This document shows positions 1,623 through 60,100 of a DNA stretch of 64,000 bases, one piece after another. Source of the stretch: Cenococcum geophilum. Taxonomy: Eukaryota. Under the pieces are notes generated by a model that was not told where the DNA came from, ran no database searches, and worked only from the letters and a program-made list of their open reading frames with translations. Position numbers and translations under genes: made by a program. The stretch lies in assembly GCA_050273025.1 (NCBI GenBank), contig CP158635.1:8866001-8930000 (forward strand), in the 5' to 3' direction. Every line of letters begins with the position of its first letter. The first letter of the stretch is position 1.

Positions 1623-2484
1623 CTAAGCTATATAACCCTATAAGAGATATAGGATAAGTGACCTATATATTATAGGCCCTATAAGGTATAAGAGTAGGAC
1701 TAATAGAGGGATATTACTTAGAAAAGTTGTTTTAGTTTTCTAAGTGGTTTATATATTAACGCTAGTAGCGCCCCCGCTTTTAAGTCTTCTTACTTAAAGA
1801 GGCTTATTTATACCAGACTTTATTAAAGATATTAGGCTTTTAAAGGGTTAATAGGGAGGTAAAAAGCTAGATAGAAAACGTTTACGTTAGTGTTAGTTTA
1901 TGCTTAGTGTTAAGACCGATACTATAGAAACCGGCAAATTTACTTAGCGATCTTAACTATTAAGTATTTTTATTCCCTAAGCTACTTCTTAAGCCTATTA
2001 GTCCCCTAAAAATCTCATTTTCTCTAATAAGAAGCCCCCACGCCGCACTAATAACGCCTCTTATTATATAAGGCATCCCTTTAGCACGTATATAGGCCGT
2101 AGTCTTTAATATATTAATTACCGATCTTTTTAAACCACGCTAGGATATATAAGTAGTTATCCTTAGTAAGGATAATATGCACGCCTAGGATTATTGGAAG
2201 CCCGCTATAGATATATTTATACTAGCTTCTTACCTAATTTAAAGCTTTAGATAAAGTAGCCTCCTACTATATTACCTATAGTCGCATCCTATTCTAAATC
2301 TAAATAAATTAATATTGCTATTCGCCTAGTCTACCTTATCTTAATAGAGAAGCTAGACGCAGTGTCTATAACTATAGTTTAAAATTTAGGCGTAAAGATT
2401 ATAGAGGAACCTTCTAATTAACTAATTATTCGTTTATACTCCACTCTTAAGTAAAGATAATATACTAACTATTTTATAAAATAA

Positions 2485-2901
2485 ACCCGAGAATACGCGT
2501 GCGTATATCTAGGGTGTCTATATAAAAGCATATATAGGAACAATTAGTTCCGTTATAATAATTCTTAGCACTTTTAGATAGATATATAGGTATATCTATA
2601 GGAAACGGCGACTAGCTAATAATGTCTAGACCTAAGCTATAACACGCAATGCTTTAAGCAGCATCTTTAAATATATAAGGGTACCGTTCCTTTTAAGGAT
2701 ATTAAGTTATATTATATAGGCCGGAATGGCCAATTCCAATATTAGTGTGGCTTCTATACGCAACTATAGAAATTAGAGATAGTACGTAATAAGGCTTAGA
2801 ATGAGCGTGCTAAGTATATCCTTAATCATTTTAATAAAGGATATACTTTTGGCGATTGGTAGTGTTTAGAGTTAAAAGGATATAAGGGTGAAGTTAAATA
2901 G
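2485..2901 (+). pseudogene. Fungal C2H2 zinc-finger protein, 3' exon (RIPed)
   Basis: RIP-reverted reading: REYACVYPGC...RNDWFRHDNSQHFQIDMWVC...FKQHLQIH...IGRNGQFQYWCGFC...AWNERAKHILNHFDKG...DW. This follows the fungal C2H2 pattern DWxRHxNSQH...IGRN..WCGFC..AWxERxxHIxxHF. The 5' extent was not resolved. Confidence 0.75.
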
Positions 2902-4604
2902 AATAACTCTTAGCTTCTATCTACCGTACTTCTATAGTTTTAGTTTTTGGATTACAGTGGCAAATATTATAGGGTTTATAATTTTATAGAACGTAATTTA
3001 TATTAGATTCTAAGGTTTTATTACCCGAACTTTATAACTATAATTTATCCTTTAACCCGTCAGCGCCTAATAAGTAAGTAGTCCGTATACGAACTTTAAA
3101 ACAACGCATGCCTATGTAGATTCCATTAATTAATTACCTACTATATTATAAAATACGGTTCTTTAGGAAGGATAAGTGCTAGCTACCTTATATTAAGCGA
3201 CTTAACTTCTAAAATTAAGCGTGTATATTAAATTACTATAAAATCAAAAGCTTTATATTCCTTAGCACGAGCGTTAAATTTTAGCTCGATTAATTGGTTA
3301 GTTCTTATTAATAACCGTTAGACACGAATTGACTAGTTAAGGGATAAGTGTAATTTTAATATAAAATGCTCTTAACTAATCGCTATAAACGCCATAATAG
3401 ATACTACCCTAGCCTAAGTACTAGCGTAAAGAAGCGGATACTTAAATAGCTTTAAACATTAGAGTTTCTATCTCTAATCCTATTACTTTCCTGCAATTTA
3501 TAATTCTAAAAACCTATATATTCCGATAAAGATATTACCGCAAATACTATAACGCACACCCACTACTTTATATTAGAGGATTTCTTTAGAGGTTAGATAA
3601 TTTACTTACTAAGAGGTAATAATCCGTCTGAGGTAAGGTAAGGAGAATTATACTTACTATAGCTGGAAAAAAGCTAATAGTTGCGCCGAGTATAATTATC
3701 CATAATGCTTTATCTAACTAGATTTGTTTTACTATAACCTAGAAAGATGTATTATAGTAATATATACACCACTCTAACTCTATAATAAGCTAAGCTATAG
3801 TAAATAGAACCTATACTAAGACGCTTCCTAAAGCTATTAAGACGTATACTAAAAATCGGCTTAATATTAAGAATAATAGTACTATATTAGAAGGCTGGAG
3901 TAGGGAAGAAAATAAAATGGCAATAATAAGCACCTAGCGTGCTAAGTAGGGGTTTTAGCAGTATTACTTACAGGAGTTCTATAGACTTATAACCTAGTTC
4001 CCTATTGGTGGATTCCTTTAATATAGTGGCCTTATAGACCTAAATAACTAATATAAGTAATAATAGAGACTCTAGCAACTAAGTTATTGGCTATAATAGG
4101 TCTTAGGGTAGGTAGACTTTCTAAAGCTTCTTATACCGCTAAATAAGAAGCCTAATAATAAGTTTAGGAAAAATAAAAAGGAGGAGCACCTAAAGCAAAA
4201 GATGCTCTTAGAAGTAACTTAGCTTATAGTACTAATAAAGTATAATACAGAACAGTATAAAGTAATAAAAGAACTATATATAGGAATACGTAGCATAGGC
4301 AAACTAATAATTGTGTATTATTGTAACCGAAATAACTAAGAGCGGCGAAGGGAGAAGGTAACTATATCTTTAGCCTAGCCAACCTGCCGCCCTTATATCC
4401 ATACTAGCAATACTAGAACTTATAGGAAAGTGGCCTTAAATGTCCTATTATAACTTATAAAAGAACTAATATAATATTAGAAATGCTTTTCTAGGGGGTT
4501 AAATACTATCTCCTAAGGTAAACAAAGTTAGTATAAGACTGTAGATATGTTGGGGTAAGCGGGATAGGCTAACTTTAGGGGGTAGGGGGGAGGCGTTTTA
4601 CGCG

Positions 4605-4715
4605 GTAACTACTAAATCCTAGACGTAGTATACCGCGACCACCAAATTATAAACGCCTTTGCACTATAACCGCCAAATTATAAACGCCTTCGTACTATAA
4701 CCACTAAATTATAGA
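4605..4715 (+). repeat. ~30-bp tandem subterminal repeat, 3-4 units
   Basis: accaccaaattataaacgcctttgcactata / accgccaaattataaacgccttcgtactata / accactaaattataga. Confidence 0.8.
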
Positions 4716-24586: not shown

Positions 24587-24854
24587 CATCAGGAAATTTT
24601 TTTTTGGGCGCGTTGTTGCAAACGAAAATCGGGGTCTACAAAACCTGCGTAAGTCGCAATTTTAGCAATTTGCGGCGATTTGTAGCAATTTGCTACAAAC
24701 ACATAGGCTACCTATACACGCGCCTGCCCTATCTATGTGTTTATAACAAATTACTGCAAATTGCCGCAAATGCTAAAATTGCGACTTACGCCTGCAGGTT
24801 TTGCAGACCCCGATTTTCGCTTACAACAACGTGCCTAAAAAAAAATTCTTAATG
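24587..24854. repeat. 268-bp fold-back palindrome (MITE-like unit with its own two TIRs)
   Basis: ~120-bp arms, e.g. gcaaacgaaaatcggggtctacaaaacctgcgtaagtcgcaattttagc versus gctaaaattgcgacttacg..caggttttgcagaccccgattttcgcttac, around a ~25-bp spacer. Confidence 0.93.
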
Positions 24855-25199
24855 CAGAGGCTCTGCACGAGGCTCTACACAAAGCTCTGCACGAAGGGGG
24901 TCGCAGCTCGGCAAGGTCACGGAAAAGCTCGGCAAGGTCACAAAGTTCAACGGGGTCAGAACTTTAAGTTTGACTTTATGACCCTGCTCAGCTTCCAACC
25001 CCGCCGAGTTTGTGCATATGCAGCGCATATATAAATAAAAAATTTAATATATAGAATTTAAAGTATTTAAAGTATTTAATAAATAACGAATATAATAAAA
25101 CACTTAATATGCATATGCAGAGCATATGCATACCCTAGCTACAGTACAAAATACGCGAGCTAAGTTATTAAAACATGGCCCGTGCATACGCGTCGCATA

Positions 25200-27250
25200 T
25201 CCACAACAACAGCGGTCGCATTATAACTTCTCCACGACACCACCACAGCATACACCACGGGTATGTCCTGCATAACCTATACATAAGCGTTACATATGCT
25301 GACATAGTGCTAGTTAAATTTAACCACTAAACTTTATTCTCGCATACGCCTTACCATAAGCCTCTTAATTATTAATTTTAATAATCCGCAGGTAGCCAGC
25401 GCCAACAACCCTAGCACCTTTAGCTACCACTATAGTAAGCATATGCTTTGTATATACCCACAAGAAGTATATACTAATAGAAGTATATAGGCCTAATCCC
25501 CAACCCTAACCCTAACTGGGTAATACTAGGTTAGTTATAGAGAACGCATATATAAGGTATATACTTATAATAGACAAAGCACGCGCCGCAGCTTTAGTAG
25601 CTAGTGGAAGGTATAAGTAAACCAAGCGCTGTATATCTATAGCATATGCTAACCTTATATAGCCCCAGCTGTGACGGTATAGGACAACGCAAGTAGGTGC
25701 CAGAAGAGCTTGACGTAAAGAGTATGCATATACTAAGCGTAAACTAGATCCACCTAATCCCGCGTCCGTGTTATCTACTGTTAACTCTATAGTGTAGGTT
25801 ATATATCTATACCTTCTATATAGCATATGCTGACAATAAACATAGCTATAATATTGCGGTAAATGGTACGCAGATATGCGGCTGGGTCTTTACCGCCTAG
25901 CCAAGCGTATATTCCGTATATGTATAGCATCTACTTTATCCACTAATATAGTTGTAGTACCGCCGCTATATCTGCAATAAGCACAGTAGTGCCTGTACGT
26001 ATTACCATATAATAGCAGCTAAGGCATACGCTTACTATATGTAGTAACTAACTCTCCTACTACTAATACGTCGGCCGCGGAGCTAATTGCGGGAGAGAAG
26101 TATATGCCTAGTATATGCCACGTATATATAACGCTAATGCAACATAGCGCCCTAAAGTATTTCGTTCTCTCTGGCGGCTAGCGGGATACTAGGTACCTAT
26201 ATAAGCTTAGGTAAATTATACACATGCAATATATATGCAGTACTAACACTAAATATAGCCGTAGCCCTTTAGGGTTGAGGATTACGGAGTATATAGACGC
26301 CTACACTTTAATTATGTATGCTTACTCTATACCTAGCATATACCTAGCCTAAACTAACTAGATACAGTGCCTAAGACTAGGGGTTTGCCGCCCAATATGG
26401 CAGGCAATTCTATCGCGAGGTAAGAGCACTAGTATAGCTTCTGCATATACGCACTATACCCCAATATATCTATCTATCTATATATCTATATACTTATTCC
26501 CCCTAAGTTTAATTTCAGACCTAATAGTACTTATAGGCCTAAGGGTAGCATATATGAGGGATAACTACGGCCACCATTAGGACTACTACCCAATTCGGAA
26601 ACAAATACTTATCTCTATATTTAGGACACTGGCAAAGTCCAACTTTACATAGGCCCTACGCATACGTCACTAATACTACTACTTAGTTATATTGCTAGCT
26701 TATACGCGTATACACTACGTATATGCAAACCCCTAATGTCTTCTACTAACTATAGATCAATACATGCTTATGCTAGGCGTATACTAATATAAGAGAAATA
26801 GCGTGTTGGCCCGTCTACCCCTTCTACCGGCTTAAAGCGCAAGGTTAGTATTTCACCTGTATATATTCAGCATATACTAACTATATACGCAGCGTGGCCT
26901 AACCCCCCCGGGCAACCGCGAGGAGTCTCCCTCGCCGTCCACCCGCCGCCAAAAGGGCAAGTTTTTCTTGCATATACCCTGTATATGCACTACTAATATT
27001 TAGCAGCAGGGGGCAGAAAACTAGCCAGCCGTCGTTATAGTGGTAGTAAGAGCTCCGGTAAGTCTAGTTCCTTCTATTACGTATATTATACTTATACTTT
27101 ATATAAGCTACGGGCGGAACCCGCCAGTTATCCCGCCTCTCCCGTATAATGCGGGAAGCTAGTCTTAAACTTTAAGTCCTAGCATATGCTAGGCCTACAT
27201 ACTGCATACGCAGTGTGCAGTATATATAGTTGGAGTTTTAGTGAAGTTTG
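25200..27250 (+). pseudogene. MULE accessory gene built of micro-exons (unknown product), RIPed
   Basis: A run of GT...CT(A/G)AC/CTAAT...AG introns of ~45-60 bp (e.g. 25261-25307, 25435-25490, 25617-25662) separated by very short exons. No family recognised and limits are approximate. Confidence 0.55.
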
Positions 27251-27379
27251 TTTGGTGGATAGGCTAGGTATATACCTAATATAGGGCACGGGCCAATAGG
27301 CCTATATTAATTAATTCTTTATTTATGGTTATAGAACTCTATATAACATTTGCTATATATATACCTTATATATACACCT

Positions 27380-30300
27380 ATATACTAATACTATACTCCT
27401 ACACCCACTTCTTAAGCTCTACTAGTTCCTTTACTTTATTATATACGTCTTTAGCCTGTTTTAATTTGTTAATTCGTCGCTCCATATTTTCTATATATAG
27501 CGTATATACCTCCTTTTCTAGCTCCTCTATAGATAGGTAAGACCTATACCTCTTGCCCGCAGCCTGGGGTGTTTAACTTTAAGATATTAGTAGTGGCATA
27601 TACGCTATATATACGGTAAACACGCGCAACATATCCAATACTAATACAATATTATTATCTACTATACTTATCTATAATATATTCTATCTACTAAATATAG
27701 TAGGTTTAGGGGTATTAAATAGGTTCTAAGGATTCTAGGGAAGATTTAGCCTAGGATTTCTAGCTCGCCGCTTAGCTGCTTTCCGCTATTTCTACGCTGC
27801 CTAAGCTTAGTATATACTTTATATTTGCATCGCATATATATACATTATTTCCGTAGCTATACTACTATCCGCTTTAAGTCGCAATGATTTTTCTATATAT
27901 TATCTATTCCCGCCTCTTTATATAGCTCTTATATATTAAACATTTCTTATATATAAAGTTTAAGCCTTTACCAAAATATTAGAATATATGGTGCATATAT
28001 AGAGCGTATATATTTACTATAGCACTACGGTAAGCACGCATAACTTTTGACCGGTAAAGTTATTATCTTAAAAGTAACTACTTTTACTAATTCCAGTATA
28101 CTTCCGTGTATATGCCCACTACTTATAAGGGACCTTTAACTTTTCCTTTACAAGCCCGGCTAGTATCCATATTTTCTTCTTATTATTTATCTAAGACGTA
28201 AGCTCCGGATGTAGTGTATATATGCTTTATATACGCGCGATTAGTATCTGCTCTATCTCCGCTTCCTATATCTGCTCTATAATATATCTTACTTTATGAG
28301 TTAGAAAGCGCTTAGTAAAGTTCCGTTTAACGTATACTAGGTAGAATATAAGTATATACTAAAGGTGTTCATCCCATTTACGGGATAGGTCAAGTATATA
28401 TAGGTAGTCCCCAAAGCCTATATATTATAAGCATATACTAGGCGTATGCAAAGCGTATACCTAATATATACTTACCGCCAGCTTATTTCTTATATATATT
28501 AACGGTAGCTATATAAAGTCCGGTTCCGTAAATATATATAAATTGTATAGATAATCGAGCAGTATTACCTAAAACCTTAAACACTAGCTTAAATATCTTT
28601 GCGTACGTAGCACGTGTTTCTAGATTAAGAAAGGCGTATACCCACACCTTGATTCCTATTATTGGTATTAGCGTATATATAGCATATGCGTAGTATAGGG
28701 CATATATACATTTAGAATTCTTATCCTATCCTGTAATTAAGAATAGATTCGTTTTGCCTTAAACTATCTTAAATAATAGGTCCATTTCTATACATATTAC
28801 GCGTTAGAATGCCTTAGCTTACGCGTATATACAATATATAATAAGGAAATACTTGTTATTAAAGTTATAAATTGCCCAAATCTATTACTCGGTATTCTCT
28901 TTATGTTAATTAATAGAGAACTCGCGTAGTATACCTGCTCTACTTAGTCTTTATATATGCTTAGCATATATCTAACCTATACTTACCTATATATACCGTC
29001 CCCTCTGGGAATTATACCATCCTCTCCTTTCTAATTAGAGCAGTAATTTAATCCTTAATATTAAGACTACTATATACTGCACGTAGTGTCTACGCCCTAT
29101 ACTTCCTACATAAAATATAGTACTGCAGTAATAGAATAAATCGACCTATATAATAGTAAGTGTTTTATTCGCATATACTATGCATATACGGGGCATACGT
29201 GTAGTAAGGCTTAGGACTTCCACCTGCCTTATTGCCTCAACTACGTTATTAGCAAGGTCGATTAGTAGCTTTATTAGGTACGGTGGATAATATATATAAG
29301 AATTCCGTATAATAAGGTAAATGTAAGGATATTATATTATATTAATAGGAATATAACAATCTAACTGTGCACCGTATACGCGGCCTACTACCCTACCTTA
29401 GCCTTGCGGGTGGTTAAATCCTATATATGCTTAGTATATGTATAGTATATGCAACATATATATATTACTTACTATAATATTTTCACTTTAATGTTGCATG
29501 TCCAATATAGGTATATTCTCGTTTAATTTCCTAAACTCCATATTTAATAAGTAGACGAAGGTATTGAATATCTACCTAGGCAGTTATCGGTGATAAAGGC
29601 CAGGCAGTATGCCATACTTTAGTATTACTGCTACTGGAATAACTAATAAACTCTACCTGTATATAATAAGCATATATTATATATACGCTGGCTATATGCG
29701 TACTCTATGCTAAAAAAATATCATTAGTCTGCTTTTACTATATACACGTTCTTGTGTACTAGGGTATATACACTACTACCATAATTATAGAATACTATAG
29801 TAGTAGCTGTATATTATAAGCATATGCCTAATATACATAGACGACGCTTACTTCTCTATACTTTGCTTAAGCTTTTTATTAATCTCTACTGCCTAGTATA
29901 GACGACTACTATGCTTTTAGAGGTCGTTAATTAATTTAAGCTTAACCCAATTATATGCTAAGCATATATGGAGTATATCCTTATGGGCGTACTCACAGTG
30001 TCTAATACCGCTATATTTAAATGCTTAATAAAATGCTTTTCCGCTCTCCTAATTATTGGTTTCTCTAAGGAGTTATAGTTATATAATTTTAGCGTTACCA
30101 GTTTAATAGAATAAAAATTAAATCTACTAAAGGTATAAATACGGCATATGCCTAGCATATATATAGCTTACCTTTAACATATACTGCTTAATAATATCGC
30201 GTACTATCTCTTTATCTGCATCTATAGATAGTAAAGGTATTACTTTATAAACAAAATATGCAATTCCTTCTTTTCTAGTTGCTGGATATTCTAGCATTAT

Positions 30301-30690
30301 AATATAGTCTATTACCTCTTAAACAATAACTTAATGCTTACCGTTAAAGCTAATAAGTGCTTTATAGTCTCGGAGTGTGCTTTAGCTATTCTAAGCATAT
30401 ATATAGCCTATATATAGTGTTATACATAGTCTTACCTTAGAGAGACCTATATAAAATAGAAGCCGCTATTATATACTATCTTAATCCTCGCCCTCCTCAG
30501 CTTCCTTATCTTTAATTCTCTCTCTATTAATTATATTATCTTAAAAACTATCGTCTTCGTGTTTAATATTAGGTACGCTCTAGAGTACCTGCGTATACTT
30601 AGTATATGCGTGGCATATAGTGGTACAAACTTACTAGTAAGCCGTTTAGCCACGCTGCTATACTCTTATTTGCTTTAGTATTGTTTTCAG
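27380..30690 (-). pseudogene. MULE-type DDE transposase, at least 11 introns, RIPed
   Basis: Spliced, RIP-reverted reading: HTHYPPYPIKLP; IEMDLSFKMV (D1 ~28780); YAFLNLETRATYAKIFKLVF; HGTGL..ATVDMCKKQAGGFGDYL (D2 ~28499); HILIFCLVHVKRNF (CxxH ~28330-28345); HTGISESSH (E ~28083); coiled-coil tail. Confidence 0.85.
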
Positions 30691-30996
30691 TTATTATTGA
30701 TATAGCGAGGCGCATATAAATGCGCGTTTATATACGTATGTGTATATATGTATGTTTATATATCTATATATCTACGTGTCTGCGTGTCTGCGTGCGTATG
30801 CGTAGCATATGCCCTAGGTATTTGGTTTGTGCGGTCGCTTAAGTTAAATGTGGCTACCGATGCGCGTTCTGTATGGGTAAAAGTGTGACCCCGCCGACCT
30901 TTTGCCGGTGGTTCCATCGGTGACCCCGTTCAACTTTCGCCGACCCCATCGGTGACCTTGTTCAACTTTTCCGTGACCTTGGTCAGCTGCACCCCG

Positions 30997-31115
30997 TGCA
31001 CGAAGCTCTGCACGAAGCTCTACACGAAGCTCTGCACGAAGCTCTACACGAAGCTCTACACGAGGCTCTGCGCGAAGCTCTGCGTGCGGAGGCTCTACAC
31101 GAAGCTCTACACAAA
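30997..31115 (+). repeat. 12-bp minisatellite GCACGAAGCTCT (continues 24855-24896, split by the MULE)
   Basis: Direct tandem units; source of the HEAL/ELRA/TKLC pseudo-ORFs. Confidence 0.95.
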
Positions 31116-31279
31116 GCCTTTGTGTATGCGCGGGACACACTACTATCGGGTCCCCGCTATATTCCCGATAGCCTCGACACGTGCCTCTGCCAAGTATACC
31201 CCTTATATACACCTAGGTAGCCACCTCATTTTTTACCCTTCCTTATATCCTACCTAGGAAGACACTAGAACGACAGCCA

Positions 31280-31565
31280 GCAGACGACCGTCGCCGGAGC
31301 CAGACGACCATCGTCGGAGCTAGATGACCGTCGCCAGAGCTAGACGACCGTCAGAGCCAGACGACCGTCGTCAGAGCTAGACGACCGTCGTTAGAGCTGG
31401 ACGACCGTCGCCGGAGCCAGATGACCGTCGCCAGAGCTAGACGACCGTCAGAGCCAGACGACCGTCGTCAGAGCTAGATGACCGTCGCCAGAGCTAGACG
31501 ACCGTCAGAGCCAGACGACCGTCGTCATCGCCACACGACCGTCGCCAGAGCCACACGACAACCGT
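31280..31565 (+). repeat. 15/18-bp minisatellite GAGC(C/T)AGACGACCGTC(GCC)
   Basis: About 15 tandem units of two lengths, with a higher-order repeat of ~69 bp. Confidence 0.92.
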
Positions 31566-31624
31566 TCGAACGACCAGCCAGCGAACACGATAAACGATTC
31601 GATCGATCGATCGAATCAAGGTAA

Positions 31625-32168
31625 CATAGACAGGTGGGCATAGATAGGTAGGCACAGACAGGTAGGTATAGACGGGTAGGTATAGACGGATGGACAAATA
31701 GGTAGGTAGGTAAGTAGGTAGGTAAATAGGCAGGCAGGTAGGTAGGTAGGCAGGTAGGCAGGCAAGCAGGTAGATAGGCAAATAGGTAGGTAGGTAGGTA
31801 GGTAGGTAAATAAGTAGGTAAATAGGCAGGTAGGCAGGTAAGCAGGCAGGCAGGTAGGTAAATAGGTAGGTAGGTAGGTAGGTAAGTAGGTAGGTAGGCA
31901 GGTAGGTAGGTAGATAGGTAGGTAGGCAGGTAGGTAGGTAGGTAAGTAGGCAGGCAGGTAGGTAGGTAGATAAGTAGGTAGGTAGATAAGTAGGTAGGTA
32001 GGTAGGTAGGTAAATAGGTAGGTAGATAGGTAGGCAGGTAGGTAAGTAGATAGGTAGGTAAGTAGATAAGTAGGTAGGTAAGTAAGTAGGTAGGTAGGTA
32101 GGTAGGTAGGTAGGTAGGTAGGTAGACAGGCAGGCAAGTAGGTAGGTAGGTAGATAGATAGGTAGATA
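31625..32168 (+). repeat. (TAGG/CAGG)n tetranucleotide microsatellite, ~540 bp
   Basis: Visible taggtagg/caggcagg run; source of the PTYL pseudo-ORFs. Confidence 0.97.
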
Positions 32169-32573
32169 ATTTAGAGCCTCTGTAAGAGGCTTCCCCCTTA
32201 ATACCTAAAGTAGATAGCTTTATATTTTATATAGTTATAATATAAATATATTTAAAAGTATACTATAGAAATCTATAGAAATATATAATAATTTGGTTAT
32301 TATATAATATAATTATAATTTATATAGTTACAATTTATATAGTTTTTATAATTTGTATAGTTTGCGCGCTATTTATTTATAGGGTAGCGTTTTACTGCAA
32401 TTTATTTATAGGGGTAGCATTTTGCCGCAATTTGCTATTAGGTGCTGCGATTTTATTATAAAATATGCGTTTTGCGTAAATTGCTATTAACTATATCTAC
32501 CTACCGTAACCGTATAGTTTGCGGCAATTTGCCGCAAACCGCAATAATAAGCCCTAAAAAAAATTTCCTAATA

Positions 32574-34150: not shown

Positions 34151-35016
34151 GGGAGGGTACGACCCAGTGTGGGTTTGTATAAACCTTATCGCGATAAGAC
34201 GCAATGGATATCCTTATCGCGATAAGGATATCCATTGCGTTTTATCGCGATAAGTCTTGGCATACCCCAAATAAATTTTTAGTCGCCTTCCTCCTCTTTA
34301 TTACTATATATAATATAGTTTTAGAAGTAAAATTAGACGCTCTCAACTCTATTAATACCTCTAAATCGAAAAATATAAGAGGTTTATTAGCTCTTTAATA
34401 TAGAATACCCGTCCACTAGGCAGTAGTATAGTTTTAGATAAATCTAATCACAATAAGTCTTAGCATACCCTAAATAATTTTTTAGTCGCCTTCTTTATTA
34501 TTATTATATAAAAAGAACTAATTTAAACCTAGTAAATAAAGTTATATTATCCTTTTTTTCTAAATTTTAGTAAGTGGCTCTATATATGGCTCTACATCCG
34601 GCTCTGCGCAGGAAGCTCTGCATACGGAGGCTCCGCACGAAGCTCTACACGAAGCTTTGCACGAAGCTCTGCACGAAGCTCTGCACGAAGCTCTGCACGA
34701 AGCTCTGCACGAAGCTCTGCACGAAGCTCTACACGAAGCTTTGTACGAAGTTCCGCACGAAGCTCCGCACGAAGCTCCGCACGAAGCTCTGCACAAAGCT
34801 CTGCACGAAGCTCTGCACGAAGCTCTGTATACAAAAGCTCTGCACGACGGCTCTGCGTACGACGGTTCTGTGCTATTCTGCTTGGTTGGGGTAGAAAAGC
34901 CCCGCACAGGGCACTTTATCCTTATCGATTGCAATATTTTATGCATTTTCTATTGGATAAGGATATTTTATGCTCGCTTATTCGCATTATCCAAAACCAC
35001 ACTGGTACGACCTCTC
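34151..35016. mobile_element. 866-bp non-autonomous TIR element (MULE-like ends) carrying the 12-bp minisatellite
   Basis: Left GGGAGGGTACGACCCAGTGTGGGTTTGTATAA versus reverse-complemented right GAGAGGTCGTACCAGTGTGGTTTTGGATAA. Three subterminal TTATCGCGATAA palindromes at 34185-34254. No TSD found. Confidence 0.65.
34600..34860 (+). repeat. 12-bp minisatellite GCACGAAGCTCT, ~20 units, nearly un-RIPed
   Basis: Direct tandem units of the same sequence as at 30997 and 55085. Confidence 0.96.
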
Positions 35017-52665: not shown

Positions 52666-55084
52666 CTAAAAGATCTATAGATAAATATATATGAAAATTA
52701 AAAAGTAAAGTATATTCTAAAGAGTATAGTAGAGCATTTTATAAAAGATTTCTATAAGGGAATAACTTAAGGATATAATGGAGCAATAGGCTTAGTGTTA
52801 AAACTTTAGAAAGAATACATTATTAATAGAATCTGGAATATTATAAGAAAAGTAATAAAGAAGTATCTAAATTGCTAAAGAAATAAACTAATAAGGTATA
52901 AGCTATATAGGGGGCTATAACCTATTAAAATATTAGAGAGATTATAGGAGGTTATATTATAGGACTTTATTATTAAATTACTAAAGTTAAGATATCCTAT
53001 TACTAGATAAGAGCACGATATAATTTTAGTAATAGTAGATAAGTTAACTAAATGGGGCTACTTTATAGTATGTATAGAAGAAATCTTAGCAGAAGATATC
53101 GCTAGAATCTATATTAAAGAAGTATTTATAAGATATAGAGTACTAAGCAAGATTATATTAAATAGAGATTTAAGATTTATAGTAGTATTTTAGGAGGTAT
53201 TCTTAGCGGAGTAAGGAGTTAAAGTAGTAGCTTCTATTATATATTATCTATAAATAGACAGATTAATAAAAAGATTAAATTAGACGCTAGAATAGTATCT
53301 AAAATATTATATTAATTACATATAGAATAATTAGGTATTGCTATTACTAGTTATATAGTTTATATATAATATAATACTATAAGAAGGAATAGGCATATTA
53401 CTATTTAAGGCAAACTATAGATACGAGCTAAGAATATTATTATTACTATAATAAGCGAAGAAAATAAGTAGTACAGCTAAAGAAAGGATAAAGATACTAA
53501 TAAATCTTTATATAGACCTTATAGAATTAGTAAAAAAGGTATAAGAGAGAATAAAAAAGTACTATAACGCTAAGAGATCTAAGGGACTAAATCTTAAGGA
53601 AGGAGATAAAGTATAGCTATTATATAAAAATTTTAAGAGTTAATAACTAAGTAAGAAGTTAAACTATGTTAGACTAAGACCTTTTAAAATTATTTAGAGG
53701 ATTTTACTAGTTATATTTAAATTAACCTAACTAGCTAAAATAAAGATCCACCCTATATAGTATATCGCAATACTAGAGCTAGTATATAGGAATATTAAGC
53801 CACTAGTTTATAAAGCAGACACGTATAGAGGATAAGAGGAAGATAAATAGTAAGTTTTAAAGATCGTTAGTTATAAAGATATTAATGATAAAATATAGTA
53901 TAAGGTTAAGTAGATAGGCTATACTAAGACAACCTAGGAACTACTATAAAATCTAAAAAACGCTATAAGAAAGATATAGGAGTATTAGAAGAAATTAAGT
54001 TAGGTAGCATTAATAAAGAAGGATTGCTAAAGAATAAGTTACCTATATTAGGATTTTTTTTGGGCTCGTTATTACGGTTTATGGTAGGTAAATATAGTCG
54101 ATAGCAATTTGCGCAAAACGCACGTTTTATAACAAAATCGCAGCACCTAATAGCAAATTACGGCAAAATGCTACCCCTATAAATAAATTGCAGCAAAACG
54201 CTACCCTATAAATAAATAGCGCGTAAACTATATAAATTGTAAAAACTATACAAACTATAAAAACTGTACAAATTGTAACTATATAAATAATAATTATATT
54301 ATATAATAACCAAATTATTATATATTCCTATAGATTTCTATAATATACTTTTAAATATATTTATATTATAACTATATAAAATATAGAGCTATCTACTTTA
54401 GGTATTAAGGGGGAAGCCTCTCGCAGAGGCTCTAAATTATCTACCTATCTACCTACCTACCTGCCTGCCTGCCTGCCTACCTACCTACCTACCTATCTAC
54501 CTACCTGCCTACCTACCTACCTGCCTACCTACCTACCTACCTACTTACCTACCTGCCTACCTACCTGCCTACCTACCTACCTGCCTACTTACCTGCCTAC
54601 TTGCCTACCTACCTATCTATCTATCCGTCTATACCTACCCATTTATACCTATATATTTATGCCTACCTATCTATACCTACCTATCTATACCTACCTGTCT
54701 ATACCTACCTATCTGTACCTACCTGTCTATATCACCTTAATTTAATTAATTAATTAAATCGTTTATTGTGTTTACTGGCTAGTTGTTTAAACGGTTATTA
54801 TATAGCTCTGGCGACGGTCGTCTAGCTCTAACGACGGTTATCTAGCTCTGACGGTTATCTAGCTCTGGCGATAGTTATCTAGCTCCGGCGATGGTTGTCT
54901 GGCTCTAGCGATAGTCGTCTGCTAGCTGTCGTTTTAGTGTCTTTCTAGGTAGGATATAAGGAAGGGTAAAAAAATAAGGTGGCTACCTAGGTGTATATAA
55001 GGGGTATACTTAGCAGAGGCACGTATTAAGGCTATTGGGAATATAGCGGGGACCTAATAGTAGTGTGTCGCGCGTATATATAAA

Positions 55085-55945
55085 GGCTTTATATAGAGCT
55101 TCGTATAGAGCCTCTATACGCAGAGCTTCGCGTAGAGCCTTATATAGAGCTTTATATAGAGCTTTATACAGAGCCTCGTATAGAGCCTCTATATATAGAG
55201 CTTTATATAGAGCCTTATATAGAGCCTTATATAAAGCTTTATATAGAGCTTTATATAGAGCTTTATATAGAGCTTTATATAGAGCTTTGTATAGAGCTTT
55301 ATATAGAGCTTTATACAAAGCTTTATATAGAGCTTTATATAGAGCCTTATATAGAGCTTCTATACGTAAAGCTTTGTATAGAGCCTTATATAGAGCCTTA
55401 TGCAAAGCTTTATATAAAGCTTTATGCAGAGCTTTGTATAGAGCCTCTATACGTAGAGCTTTGTATAGAGTATTATGCAGAGCTTTATATATAGCTTTGT
55501 ATAGAGCTTTATGTAAAGCTTTATGTAAAGCTTTATATAGAGCTTTATATAGAGCTTCGTGTAGAGCTTTATATAGAGCTTCGTGTAGAGCTTCGTGTAA
55601 AGCTTTATATAGAGCTTTGTATAGAGCTTTGTATAGAGCTTCGTACAGAGCCTCGTATAGAGCCTCTATACGTAGAACTTTGTATAGAGTTTTATATGGA
55701 GCCTCGTGCAAAGCTTCGTGTAGAGCTTCGTATAGAGCTTTGTATAAAGCTTTGTGTAGAGCTTTATACAGAGCTTTATATAGAGCTTCGTGCAGAGCTT
55801 TATATAGAGCTTTGTGCAGAGCTTTATATAGAGCTTCGTGTAAAGCTTTATGCAGAGCTTTGTATAGAGCTTCGTGTAGAGCTTCGTGCAGAGCTTTGTG
55901 TAAAGCCTTATATAGAGCTTTGTATAGAACCTTGTGTAGAATCTC
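55085..55945 (-). repeat. 12-bp minisatellite, ~70 units, strongly RIPed
   Basis: agagcttcgtgc units grading into agagctttatat; produces the 319-aa and 374-aa pseudo-ORFs. Confidence 0.96.
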
Positions 55946-55947
55946 TA

Positions 55948-56186
55948 CATTAGGATTTTTTTTAGGCATGTTATTGCAAGCGAAAATCGGGGTCTATAAA
56001 ACCTGCGTAAGTTACAATTTTAGCAATTTGCACAAACATATAGATTGGGCAGGCGCGTGCATAGGTAACCTATGTGTTTGTAGCAAATTGCTGCAAATCG
56101 CCGCAAATTGCCAAAATTGCGACTTACGCAGGTTTTGCAGACCCCGATTTTCATTTACAATAACGCGCCTAAAAAAAATCCTAATA
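55948..56186. repeat. Fold-back palindrome (MITE-like unit), copy 2
   Basis: Homologous to 24587-24854, with a short deletion in one arm. Confidence 0.92.
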
Positions 56187-57155
56187 TAAGGGGGACCTAA
56201 GAAGAGTAGTTACCAAACTACTTAGATCTATTTCCTTTTTAGCTAGAAGAGAATCCGTTTTTTTATTACTAAGTTCCTATAAACCTTATTCTATAAGTTT
56301 TTACTCCTTAAAATAACCCTTTTTACAAACTTTCTTAAGATAAAGTAACTAAGCAGATGCTATAATATAAGTATTTAAGGCCTTCTATTCTGTATTATAA
56401 GAATATTCTAACTTAATAAGAGCTTAAAATAACTCGCTATTAAGATAAGTAGTAGTAGATTAAATATAAGACCCTAAGATAAATTAACTAGGGAACTAAA
56501 TAACTATTAAGGATAATAAAACGTGTATATTTAGTATTAGATATAAAACAAACGTTATAGAATAAGTAAATATTTACTTTAGTGTACTCTAAATAAGAGG
56601 ACAGTTATTAAGAGAATAGACTCGCTAATATAATATAAACTAACCCCTCTTTTGTATAATAAGAATATAGAAATAGTATAATCTTACTAAGTAATAATAT
56701 TATAGTAATAGTGCGGGCATAATATTAAGCGTATAAAGAAGAAGGAGCTTTAGGTATAATAAGTAACAATATTAACTAAATTAATTAGATGGATATTATA
56801 CCTCTAGTAAACAACTTAGAGATATTAAAAGTTTTTAAGGATAAAGATAGAAAGAAGGGAGATAGTATTACGGATGCTTTAAGTACAATATTATAACTAC
56901 TAAGAGAGGAGTTAAAAGTAGCTAGTTAGTTAATTAAGGTATAGTTTAGAATAGAGCTAATAGAACTATATAATAAGAAATAGTAACTAAGGTTATATAA
57001 CGTGCTATATATTAAATAAGAGAAATAAGAGGAACTTACGTACCTTATATATAAGACGTACTTTACGTATAAGGAGGATTTCTTAAAAGTATAGTTGTGT
57101 ATTTAAAGGACTATAGTCCCTACTTAGATAGTTCTTCTCCTTTATAATAAAGCCT

Positions 57156-60100
57156 TATAGTAGGAACTACGGTAAACTTATTAATAGGCTAGGTATATAG
57201 GTAAATAAGAAGTTAATAACGTAATAATAACTAGTAGAGTAGTTACCTAACAGATTAACTCTAATTATATTCTGAGATTTACTACAAAGAAGAGAACTAT
57301 TTAGGTAGGGATTATAGTTCTTTAAATATATAACCGTACTTTTAAGAAATCCCCTTTATATATAAGGTATATATACTTTACTTACTCTATTATAAATTCT
57401 ATAGATCTTATAGATTATATAGATTACGTTATATAACCTTAGTTACTATTCCTTATTATATAGCTCTATTAGCTCTATCTTAAACTATACTTAAATTAAC
57501 TAACTAGCTTCTTCTAACTTCTCTTTAAGTAGTTATAATATTATACTTAAAGCGTCCATAACACTATTTCCCTTCTCTTTATCTTTGTCCTTAAATATTT
57601 TAAATATTTTTAAGTTATTTATTAAAGGTATAATATCTATCTAATTAATTTAGTTAATATTGTTACTTATTATACCTAAAGCTTTTTCTTCTTCTTTAAC
57701 TATTTATTATATTCGCACTATTACTATAATATTATCTCTTAGTAAGATTATACTATCTCTATATTCTTATTATTTAAAAGAGGGGTTAGTTTATATTGCG
57801 TTAGCGAGTCTATCTTCTTAATAACTATCTTTTTACTTAGAGTGCACTAAAGCGAATATTTATTTGTCCTATAATATTTGCTTTATTTTTAATACTAAAT
57901 ATATATAACCTATTACTTTTAATAGTTATCTAGTTCCCTAATTGATTTATCTTAAGGTCTTATATTTAATTTACTGCTACGCGGCTAGATAATAAACTAT
58001 TTATTGCCCTAGTAGAATTACGTTATTTTTATAATACTAAATAAGAGGTGGCCAATGCTTAGCAACGGGCCCTTAAGTCTTATCTTACTGCGTTTACTTA
58101 GTTAATCCGTCTTAAGAAGGTTTATAAGAAGGTTTATTTTAAGAAGTAGAAACTTATAAAATAAGGTTTATAGGAACTTAGTAATAAAAAAACGGATTCT
58201 CTTCTATCTAAGAAGAAAATAGATTTAAGTAGTTTAGCAACTACTCTTCTTAGGTCCCCCTTAGGTAACTTATTCTTTAGTAATTTTTTTTATTAATACT
58301 ACCTAACCTAATCTCTTCCGATACTCCTATACCTTTTTTATAGCGTTTTTTAGATTCTCTAGTAGCTTCTAGGTAGTCTTAGTGTAGCCTATTTACTTAA
58401 CCTTATACTATATTTTATCGTTAATATCTTTATAATTAACGATTTTTAAAACTTGCTATTTGTCTTCCTTTTATCCTCTATATATATCTGCCTTATAAAC
58501 TAATAGCTTAATATTCCTATATGCTAGTTCTAGTATTATAATATACTATATAGGGTAGATCTTTATTTTAGCTAGTAGGTTTAACTTAAATATAACTAGT
58601 AAAATCCTCTATATAATTTTAAAAGGTCCTAGTTTAATATAGTCCAACTTCTTACTTAGTTGTTAACTTTTAAAAATTTTATATAGTAGCTATACTTTAT
58701 CTCCCTCCCTAAGATCTAGTCCCTTAGATCTCTTAGCATTATAGTACCTTTTTATTCTCTCTTATACTTTCTTTATTAATTCTATAAGGTCTATATAAAG
58801 GTTTATTAGTGTCTTTATTTTTTCTTTAGCTATACTACTTATTTTCTTCGCTTGCTATAGTAATAACGATATTTTTAGCTTATATCCATAATTTGCCTTA
58901 AATAGTAATATGCCTATTCCTTCTTATAGCGTTATATTGTATATAAACTATATAACTAGTAATAACAATACCTAATTATTCTGTGCGTAATTAATATAAT
59001 ATCTTAGATACTGCTTTAGTGTTTAATTTAGTCTTTCTATTTAACTGTCTGTCTATAGATAATATATAGTGGAAGTTACTGTTTTAACTCCTTACTCTAC
59101 TAAGAATACCTCTTAAAATGCTGCTATAAATCTTAAATCTCTATCCGATATAATCTTACTTAGTACTCTATATTTTATAAACACTTCTTTAATATAGATT
59201 CTAGTAATATCCTTCGCTAAGATTTCTTCTATATATACTATAAAGTAGCCCTATTTAGTTAACTTATCTACTATTACCAAGATCGCGTTATAATCTTATC
59301 CGGTAATAGGGTTTTTTAACTTTAGTAACTTAATAATAAAGTCCTATAATATGACCTCCTATAGTCTTTCTGGTATTTTAATAGGTTATAGCCCTTTATA
59401 TAGCTTATGCCTTATTAGTTTATTTCTTTAGCAATCTAAATACTCTTTTATTACTTTTCTTGGGATATTCTAGATTCCATTAATAATGTATTTTTTTTAA
59501 AGTCTTAATACTAAGCCTGTTACTCTATTATGTCCTTAAGTTATTCCTTTATAGAAATCTTCTATAAAATGCTCTGCTATACTCTTTAGGATATACTTTA
59601 CTTCTTAATTTTTATATATATCTATCTATAGATCTTCTAGTTATATTTTTATAATTCTCTATACCTAAAAGCTTTTTAGTATCTTATAGACTCTTTCTGC
59701 TTTATTATCCTCTTAAGTTACTACTAGTTTAGGGTGGTTATATTTAATCTATCTATCCTTATCTTTACGTAGTATTGCTCCTAATAGTTTTTTTTATTAT
59801 TTTATAGTTTAGCTTTTCTATTAAGTGCGTTTACTCTTATATTCTTAGTTCCTTTAGTATACTAAATCTTAAAATAGTATTCTATAAGTATCTTTGCCTA
59901 TTTAACCTATCTCTAATTAAGTTCTTTTATTATTAGAAACCCTATTAGGTTTTTATAATCTATTTTAACTATAAATAGTTTTTTTTATACCTTATAAGAA
60001 TGCTCTCTATCTCTTAAGTGCTATAACTATACCTAATAACTCCTTATTATAGACGTTATAGTTTAACTCTAGTAGTGTTATCTTTCTACTATAGTATAAT

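Follow-up and report, generated by a model that had tools for sequence, protein, structure and literature searches.

Introduction

Mutator-like elements (MULEs) have few accessory genes, most of them without a known function, and the kind that acts against silencing with sequence specificity has been described from plants. Here we analyse a decayed MULE of 6100 bp, and in particular its second gene, called gene 2 below, in a 64,000-nucleotide stretch of Cenococcum geophilum DNA (assembly GCA_050273025.1, contig CP158635.1, positions 8,866,001 to 8,930,000, forward strand; hereafter the window, with positions counted from its first letter). Comparisons across related loci show that gene 2 belongs integrally, as an accessory gene, to a clade of Pezizomycotina MULEs.

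In maize, the mudrA and mudrB genes of MuDR are laid out convergently. In plant VANDAL MULEs, VANC21 binds a 9-bp motif that has accumulated in the introns and non-coding parts of its own element (PMC5735166, PMC10398659; the publications cited here are drawn on in excerpt). The C. geophilum element likewise carries an extra gene, has amassed a short motif in its own introns and other non-coding sequence, and encodes an extra protein with a variable, low-complexity part; it differs in being fungal, in having terminal inverted repeats (TIRs) and a C2H2-type finger, and in matching no named family, VANC itself not having been compared directly. VANC motifs are family-specific and born of tandem repeats, whereas the motif here, palindromic and recurring in 11-bp phase, is common to groups of elements. 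With maize MuDR our element shares two genes, TIRs, 9-bp duplications and a small second gene (PMC10401008), but here the orientation of that gene varies, its coding sequence has 14 introns and its product a zinc finger, MURB being set apart by description. Mutyl of Yarrowia, with mutA and mutB, is also an ascomycete MULE with a 9-bp duplication and a second gene, whose product MutB is credited in a review with a DNA-binding role (PMC6446971, PMC5014426); Mutyl is placed in the Hop group, and transposases of that group have the MULE domain of Pfam (PMC3441728), in contrast to 0 of 9 transposase homologues here, and MutB was compared by description only. The aphid MULE Spectre pairs a C2H2 zinc-finger open reading frame with a transposase, but belongs to an arthropod clade with an 8-bp duplication and perfect TIRs, and its description, in the excerpt compared, mentions no motif lattice (PMC6446971). 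Fungal DNA transposons carrying TET/JBP also have a second gene proposed to counter silencing, but there it encodes an enzyme and the transposons belong to other superfamilies (PMC12730594), whereas gene 2, as far as its sequence tells, is without a recognisable catalytic domain. The excerpts of PMC3441728, PMC5751038 and PMC11162782 describe no gene of this kind. A literature search, outside which lay Repbase, the original Mutyl report and supplements, returned no description of gene 2 or of its associated palindrome GCATATGC; an earlier Repbase annotation is possible. Gene 2 is here assigned to none of the VANC, MURB and MutB families, and it may work like VANC.

Results

Gene 2 is a spliced gene, decayed in the window copy

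A preliminary description, made from the letters alone, had proposed that positions 25200-27250 hold a second, uncharacterised MULE gene in many pieces, convergent with the transposase, and had pointed to intron-like segments on the plus strand. A strict donor-branch-acceptor pattern occurs there eight times; dinucleotide shuffles contain 1.8 ± 1.2 (a count of 8 is reached in 0 of 500) and the minus strand two. Eight is the highest count among 248 equal-length slices of the window; splice signals at mere chance level, which the description had set as grounds for abandoning the idea, are thus not what is found. The window listing of open frames contains no long frame in the region, in keeping with the expectation that such a gene would escape open-reading-frame finders, and the gene appears after splicing. 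Models were homology-guided, the window copy being mapped from L012, a nearly intact full-length copy 76% identical to it (TpA/ApT 0.95), in which gene 2 splices to 350 stop-free codons; when nearby GT/AG sites in L012 are picked at random, the open frame has a median length of 50 codons, and 37 of 2000 reach 185. The mapped window copy has 356 codons and no frameshift.

The gene has 14 coding introns, 13 of 48-56 nt and one of 88 nt, and a likely further intron in the 5' untranslated region (UTR). Its coding exons are short (30-79 nt, apart from one of 336 nt and the last, of 68 nt), for which the term micro-exons was too strong, and introns make up 796 of 2051 bases (39%), rising to 1090 (53%) with the middle exon skipped, rather than the larger share estimated by eye. 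Among the example introns offered earlier, 25435-25490 is exact; 25617-25662 has the right acceptor but its donor lies at 25613, where GT has mutated to AT; and 25261-25307 looks like a real intron but stands upstream of the start codon and not between coding exons, with no RNA joint among those listed. A GC donor at 26957 is common to the window copy, L023 and L026, and is GT in other copies. After exon 11, the acceptor at 26507 gives an in-frame long form and that at 26801 an in-frame form without the middle, both backed by conservation alone, while a third at 26536, directly followed by a stop, is implied by contigs of run X16 that start at 26535.

Besides the mutated donor, the window copy has lost its start codon (ATG to ATA) and contains nine internal stops, opposite L012 codons for Gln (seven), Trp (one) and Arg (one). 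[quoted passage not shown] Judged by these lesions, the window copy makes no gene 2 protein and was killed by RIP.

Transcripts, suggested as a check in the preliminary description, were sought in four of the 24 sequencing runs listed, which were aligned to the window: metatranscriptome contigs (X15, X16), raw-read RNA (X21) and DNA (X1). Among the 15 splice joints listed (206 further joints lie beyond these), at least seven fall in gene 2, all from X15 and/or X16 contigs and none from the DNA run. Two equal predicted introns exactly (26100-26147 and 26844-26892), one does so at 25794-25845 when five intervening letters are counted as exon start, and four fit predicted ends within 0-5 bases, two of these leaping a diverged exon; near the mutated donor 25613 the joint departs at 25611. 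The flag 'between: not known' attaches to most RNA joints. Lengths within the contigs agree with more splices, a 116-base gap corresponding to about exons of 64 + 48 bases and 170 unaligned bases to about exons 9-11. Because most of the contigs are 85-93% alike to the window they stem from relatives, and two X16 pieces (170 and 179 bases) are without any difference from it. The stop codons of gene 2 and the transposase lie about 200 bp apart (27175-27378) and an X16 gene 2 contig reaches 27329; the convergent 3' ends may overlap and yield double-stranded RNA.

Gene 2 is conserved alongside the transposase

A scan with the transposase alignment returned 50 loci, six of which gave seven intact gene 2 models (L012, L005, L002, L014, L018 and, twice, L047). 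Exon lengths and phases are kept across these divergent intact elements: exons 2-11 measure 39, 33, 30, 46, 61, 37, 55, 63, 57 and 52 bases in L012, in L005 and in each of the two L047 copies, L014 agrees with L012 up to its contig end, and L002 and L018 are each one intron short, some L018 exons being longer. The first 185 residues, the conserved portion of the protein, are 41-74% identical, with a proportion of synonymous differences (pS) of 0.62-0.88, saturated or nearly so, and of non-synonymous differences (pN) of 0.19-0.46. The whole gene is under purifying selection next to intact transposases in many groups, which is not the pattern of Pack-MULE cargo.

An alignment of read-through frames led to three independently annotated Aspergillus hypothetical proteins, KAF5858235.1 (A. 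alliaceus/burnettii) and two from A. tanneri, and these match the spliced gene 2 profile end to end (E 8e-65, 2e-48 and 4e-48). The fourth protein match of the read-through alignment was rejected as an unspliced mistranslation of L004. Pfam on ten read-through frames gave no family, a word-based protein search with one L014 read-through frame nothing, and an exact 26-nt DNA scan of metagenome contigs no hit. Intron signals, RNA joints, the open spliced frame of L012, conserved exons and annotated proteins together lead us to regard gene 2 as real; the proposed spliced and conserved gene, convergent with the transposase in the window, stands.

Co-occurrence was scored where the sequence extends 2.2 kb or more past the catalytic core on its downstream side, which holds for 29 of the 50 loci; the other 21 were too short and were left out. 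All or part of gene 2 accompanies the transposase in 28 of these 29, loci inside a group not being independent, and in eight of nine groups by our own grouping (with the shorter L011 and L014 counted), which bears out the suggested link with this transposase clade. Spliced-profile matches occur in 16 of the 29. Twelve loci form one heavily mutated group: two, tested directly, have gene 2 in tandem (scores 459 and 467, shuffle maxima 89), and the other ten have all or part of that gene 2 stretch in common. The truncated element L050 has no gene 2. In the L033-L048 group (L041:8400-10100), the RIP context is unlike that of the window, G+C runs and donors being lost and CA/TG-rich palindromes kept (22 exact), which suggests another RIP-like specificity.

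Gene 2 is convergent with the transposase in the window group, L002, L004-6 and L047, but L011, L014, L018 and the L033/L041 group have it in tandem, on the same strand as the transposase; a mudrA/mudrB-like convergence is therefore not a defining feature. L047 carries two tandem copies, 60% identical, at 3604-4661 and 1812-2852 (both minus), the outer one lacking the middle exon and thus having the skipped form only. Identities of gene 2 and transposase co-vary (rho 0.69, ten non-independent pairs). We make no claim for the order of inversions because the trees of both genes are mostly unresolved, with one starred branch each.

Gene 2 encodes a protein with a candidate zinc finger

From a conserved N-terminal part, the gene 2 protein (250-360 residues) runs through a variable linker, a single finger and a predicted helical region into a basic tail rich in Ser, Thr and Pro. 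The four metal ligands of the C2H2-type finger are invariant in all seven intact models and also in proteins P0064 and P0066, and the usual hydrophobic positions are present, in line with the classical pattern C..C-x3-(F)-x5-(L)-x2-H-x3-5-H; the first loop is long (8-10 residues, ten in L018), and in the window copy the first Cys and first His are mutated. The last 66-70 residues in the L012, L002 and L047 models hold 15-18 Lys and Arg against 3-6 Asp and Glu, and this tail likely serves as a nuclear signal and for non-specific DNA contact.

AlphaFold on P0064, from a thin alignment, returned a predicted template-modelling score (pTM) of 0.28, with a predicted local distance difference test (pLDDT) of 37-59 in the finger region (residues 61-90). 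With this low-confidence model Foldseek found nothing at E 0.001 and VIA-align reached a best Z of 4.5, giving no pointer to a new fold; a homodimer prediction scored 0.02. Look-ups of the protein in Pfam, PDB and Atlas found no named family and no solved relative. The best Atlas cluster (0.91) contains unnamed Ascomycota hypothetical proteins and C2H2 clusters at 0.85-0.87 are leads only, the Atlas look-up covering no transposon-borne copy of gene 2.

A palindrome recurs at 11-bp intervals in introns and untranslated regions

The hexamer GCATAT or its complement ATATGC occurs 62 times in the element and 34 times in the remaining 57,901 bp of the window. The palindrome GCATATGC, or a word overlapping it, is the commonest 8-mer in all seven elements examined, with no occurrence in 19,178 bp of flanks. 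Of 64 gene 2 introns, 63 contain it when one mismatch is allowed and 43 contain an exact copy, and the transposase introns likewise carry it, but exact copies number 0 in 3714 conserved exon bases. Sites lie in step: among 115 pairs within 40 bp, 84 are 11 bp apart, 17 are 22 and 4 are 33, and 45 of the 64 introns contain a phased pair, against at most one in 200 shuffles. TIRs are where MULE transposases bind; here they are free of GCATATGC, the first motif lying 117 nt inside the left end and the last 184 nt from the right end. L018, which has the most divergent finger, has lost the phasing (one pair among 39 sites), and L050 has no exact motif, though little of the element remains. In the variable coding middle of L002 (4500-4800, minus), near-copies of the palindrome give rise to a repeated short peptide.

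The element is a divergent MULE

The decayed transposase led to 62 homologues, named ones coming from Aspergillus, Penicillium, Blastomyces, Annulohypoxylon and others, all annotated 'hypothetical'; among ten homologues checked, none comes from A. tanneri or A. alliaceus. The predicted structure of homologue P0007 is that of an RNase H-fold DDE transposase with a helical insertion, related to IS256: its top five Foldseek matches are all ISCth4 transposase (E 4.4e-5 to 2.7e-4), Hermes coming next. Since ISCth4 fits this model best, although the Pfam profiles MULE (PF10551) and Transposase_mut match 0 of 9 transposase homologues, we regard the element as a divergent MULE, of a clade which, judged by these profile searches, is overlooked by both. 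The transposase profile found no real match among PDB sequences, and a word-based protein search with the RIP-mutated transposase found nothing. The CxxH after the second Asp (C33 and H36 of alignment A1) is nearly invariant and is mutated in the window copy. Transposase introns were read by eye in L012 and then mapped to the window, and the joint 30381-30436 is present in RNA.

As in other MULEs, whose duplications measure 8-11 bp, the element has TIRs (45-70 bp) and a target site duplication, here of 9 bp (Table 1). It is matched over its full length by L012, L020, L021, L023, L026 and L028 (76-87% identity), and its ends are also marked by loose RNA contig ends at 24893/24896 and 30996; 9-bp duplications, exact or with 1-2 changes, surround six related loci (L020, L021, L023, L026, L028 and L002). 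The insertion target was a 12-bp array of another repeat, whose second copy (54073-56188) displays the empty site. Parts of this host repeat lie at 24595-24896 and 30997-32514, and the array also at 34576-34859; it has a palindromic end of 250 bp, together with both 12-bp and 20-bp arrays and a 4-bp microsatellite, shows very high depth in DNA run X1, and is covered 460-850-fold, strongly on one strand, by reads of RNA run X21.

The window as a whole is RIP-type, AT-rich fungal repeat DNA (TpA/ApT 1.3-2.7 all along). It contains very AT-rich long inverted duplications of about 88% identity (43177-46601/59638-63642 and 52665-54045/58262-59641), a very AT-rich 2-kb fold-back (56187-58263), and four direct-repeat pairs, 5.4-7.3 kb apart and about 91% identical, that are probably the long terminal repeats of RIP-mutated retrotransposons (5872-6059/11308-11495, 16420-16792/21962-22334, 33055-33248/40371-40564 and 46604-46788/52495-52679). 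Elsewhere, locus L024 holds nested or rearranged pieces of the element family studied here.

Table 1 Features of the MULE and its two genes in the window.
Feature	Position	Strand	Basis
Left 9-bp target site duplication	24888..24896	+	identical to 30997-31005
Whole MULE DNA transposon, RIP-mutated, 6100 bp	24897..30996	.	full-length relatives, RNA contig ends, empty-site match
Left imperfect TIR with internal sub-repeats, without GCATATGC	24897..24958	+	inverted matches 24897-24941/30952-30995 and 24942-24958/30921-30937
GCATATGC lattice of intronic and UTR palindromes, frequently paired at a spacing of exactly 11 bp	25014..30812	.	word counts, spacing
Likely 5'UTR intron of gene 2	25261..25307	+	GT..branch..AG; similar stretch by eye upstream of the start in L012, L004, L002, L014
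Gene 2 (15 coding exons, 356 codons), a pseudogene in the window	25356..27175	+	mapped from near-intact L012; RNA joints
Gene 2 exons 1-8	25356-25434, 25491-25529, 25580-25612, 25663-25692, 25748-25793, 25846-25906, 25958-25994, 26045-26099	+	
Gene 2 exons 9-15	26148-26210, 26259-26315, 26368-26419, 26508-26843, 26893-26956, 27007-27057, 27108-27175	+	
C2H2-type zinc finger C-x8-C-x12-H-x4-H, split by intron 25907-25957	25847..25985	+	alignment
Exons 8-11, conserved, predicted helical, no named family	26045..26419	+	alignment; helices 115-136 and 150-173 in low-confidence P0064 model
Three candidate 3' splice sites after exon 11	26420..26801	+	RNA contig ends, conservation
Basic Ser/Thr/Pro-rich tail	26802..27175	+	residue counts
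MULE/IS256-type DDE transposase gene, RIP-mutated, about 11 short motif-bearing introns	27378..30697	-	homologues, structure model
Right imperfect TIR	30921..30996	-	inverted matches to left end
Right 9-bp target site duplication	30997..31005	+	exact pair of 24888-24896

Discussion

The earlier suggestion that the second protein might bind the GCATAT(GC) array has become more plausible, given the C2H2-type finger, the basic tail, the 11-bp phasing and the motif-free TIRs. The anti-silencing role also suggested there has likewise gained in plausibility, by analogy. We propose that the gene 2 protein is a nuclear, sequence-specific DNA binder that recognises the palindrome GCATATGC, and binding to the lattice seems to us somewhat the better bet. 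Dimers of the protein would pack adjacently along one face of the helix, which would explain sites 11, 22 and 33 bp apart, and the many short introns of both genes would provide storage for sites without changes to the proteins. Coated along its full length, the element would stay open to transcription or able to move in spite of silencing by host chromatin, in the way that VANC acts for the VANDAL MULEs of plants. For this full scheme, an element-encoded DNA-binding protein coating the lattice and keeping the element active against silencing, we would put the chances at slightly short of even. The broadest version is more tentative still: an undescribed fungal MULE clade may have its own sequence-specific chromatin factor, with about 25 short introns forming a helically phased lattice of sites and their number kept high to store them, as an independently evolved counterpart of VANC.

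Several observations weigh against this scheme. A single finger alone is a weak binder, and Pfam C2H2 scores stay under the cut-off (zf-C2H2_11 on P0064: E 0.025, 14.7 bits, cut-off 27). VANC and its motifs diverge together and fast, but here the motif stays constant between groups whose proteins share only 41-74% identity. RIP was as frequent at motif sites as at context-matched ones (kept 0.39-0.58 vs 0.49-0.65), so nothing shielded them from it. The motif often adjoins the branch site, also compatible with a role in splicing, and the raw-read RNA run X21 reaches a depth of at most 3-fold on gene 2, with no joint among those listed. Finally, a MULE transposase can by itself bind its own elements and activate them, according to the excerpt of bioRxiv 10.64898/2026.08.24.746577.

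Rather unlikely, yet the strongest competitor, is a gene 2 protein that binds the lattice or the transposase but serves transposition (by bending, packing or MURB-like help with insertion) or self-limiting repression instead of countering silencing. The same co-inheritance and DNA-binder anatomy would be expected of it, MURB is apparently essential for insertion in the part of PMC10401008 drawn on, and a repressor would also yield the RNA depth of 17-1238 over gene 2 against 0-4 over the transposase core (27334-28989), depth being a poor measure of expression. A transposition role sits badly with sites spread over the whole element rather than near its ends, and no MURB homology turned up, no direct comparison having been made.

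Marginally less probable again is a lattice read by the transposase or a host factor, with gene 2 doing other work such as protein or RNA binding. The AtMu1 transposase, in the same bioRxiv excerpt, binds its own family and activates it with no accessory gene involved, and invariance of the motif over distant groups is what a host factor site would show; but the TIRs carry different sub-repeats, the motif is missing from 19 kb of flanks, and L050, the sole group without gene 2, has no exact motif, though little of that element is left.

An action of the motif in RNA, as a splicing signal or hairpin, with gene 2 a splicing regulator switching the introns of the element, appears improbable. The last motif mostly ends 12-26 nt ahead of the acceptor, beside the branch site, palindromes 3 nt apart are able to pair, and the presence of three candidate acceptors behind exon 11 hints at regulation of splicing. 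Off-consensus positions of paired sites, however, comprise 78 mismatches, 23 G-U and only 3 compensatory changes, and because compensation is rare, a lattice on duplex DNA in helical step fits better than RNA hairpins; the strict 11-bp period, the commonest variants without strand bias (6 vs 5) and the presence of the motif in UTRs and variable coding parts argue in the same direction. That there is no real second gene, or only a captured host gene, is largely refuted and very improbable: the broken window copy and the predominance of joints flagged 'between: not known', from relatives about 85-93% alike, would suit it, but conserved exon lengths and phases with saturated synonymous sites, independent annotations, presence in eight of nine groups and the short frames from random splice-site choices do not.

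What the locus offers is a fungal accessory protein family with intact copies and a candidate target, an 8-bp palindrome at an 11-bp period, in a class of gene overlooked by standard repeat annotation. If the proposed coating of the lattice by the gene 2 protein is true, it would represent a transposon route to counter fungal genome defence, would give a reason why a mobile element should have introns at such extreme density, and would provide a small, programmable-looking DNA-binding module.
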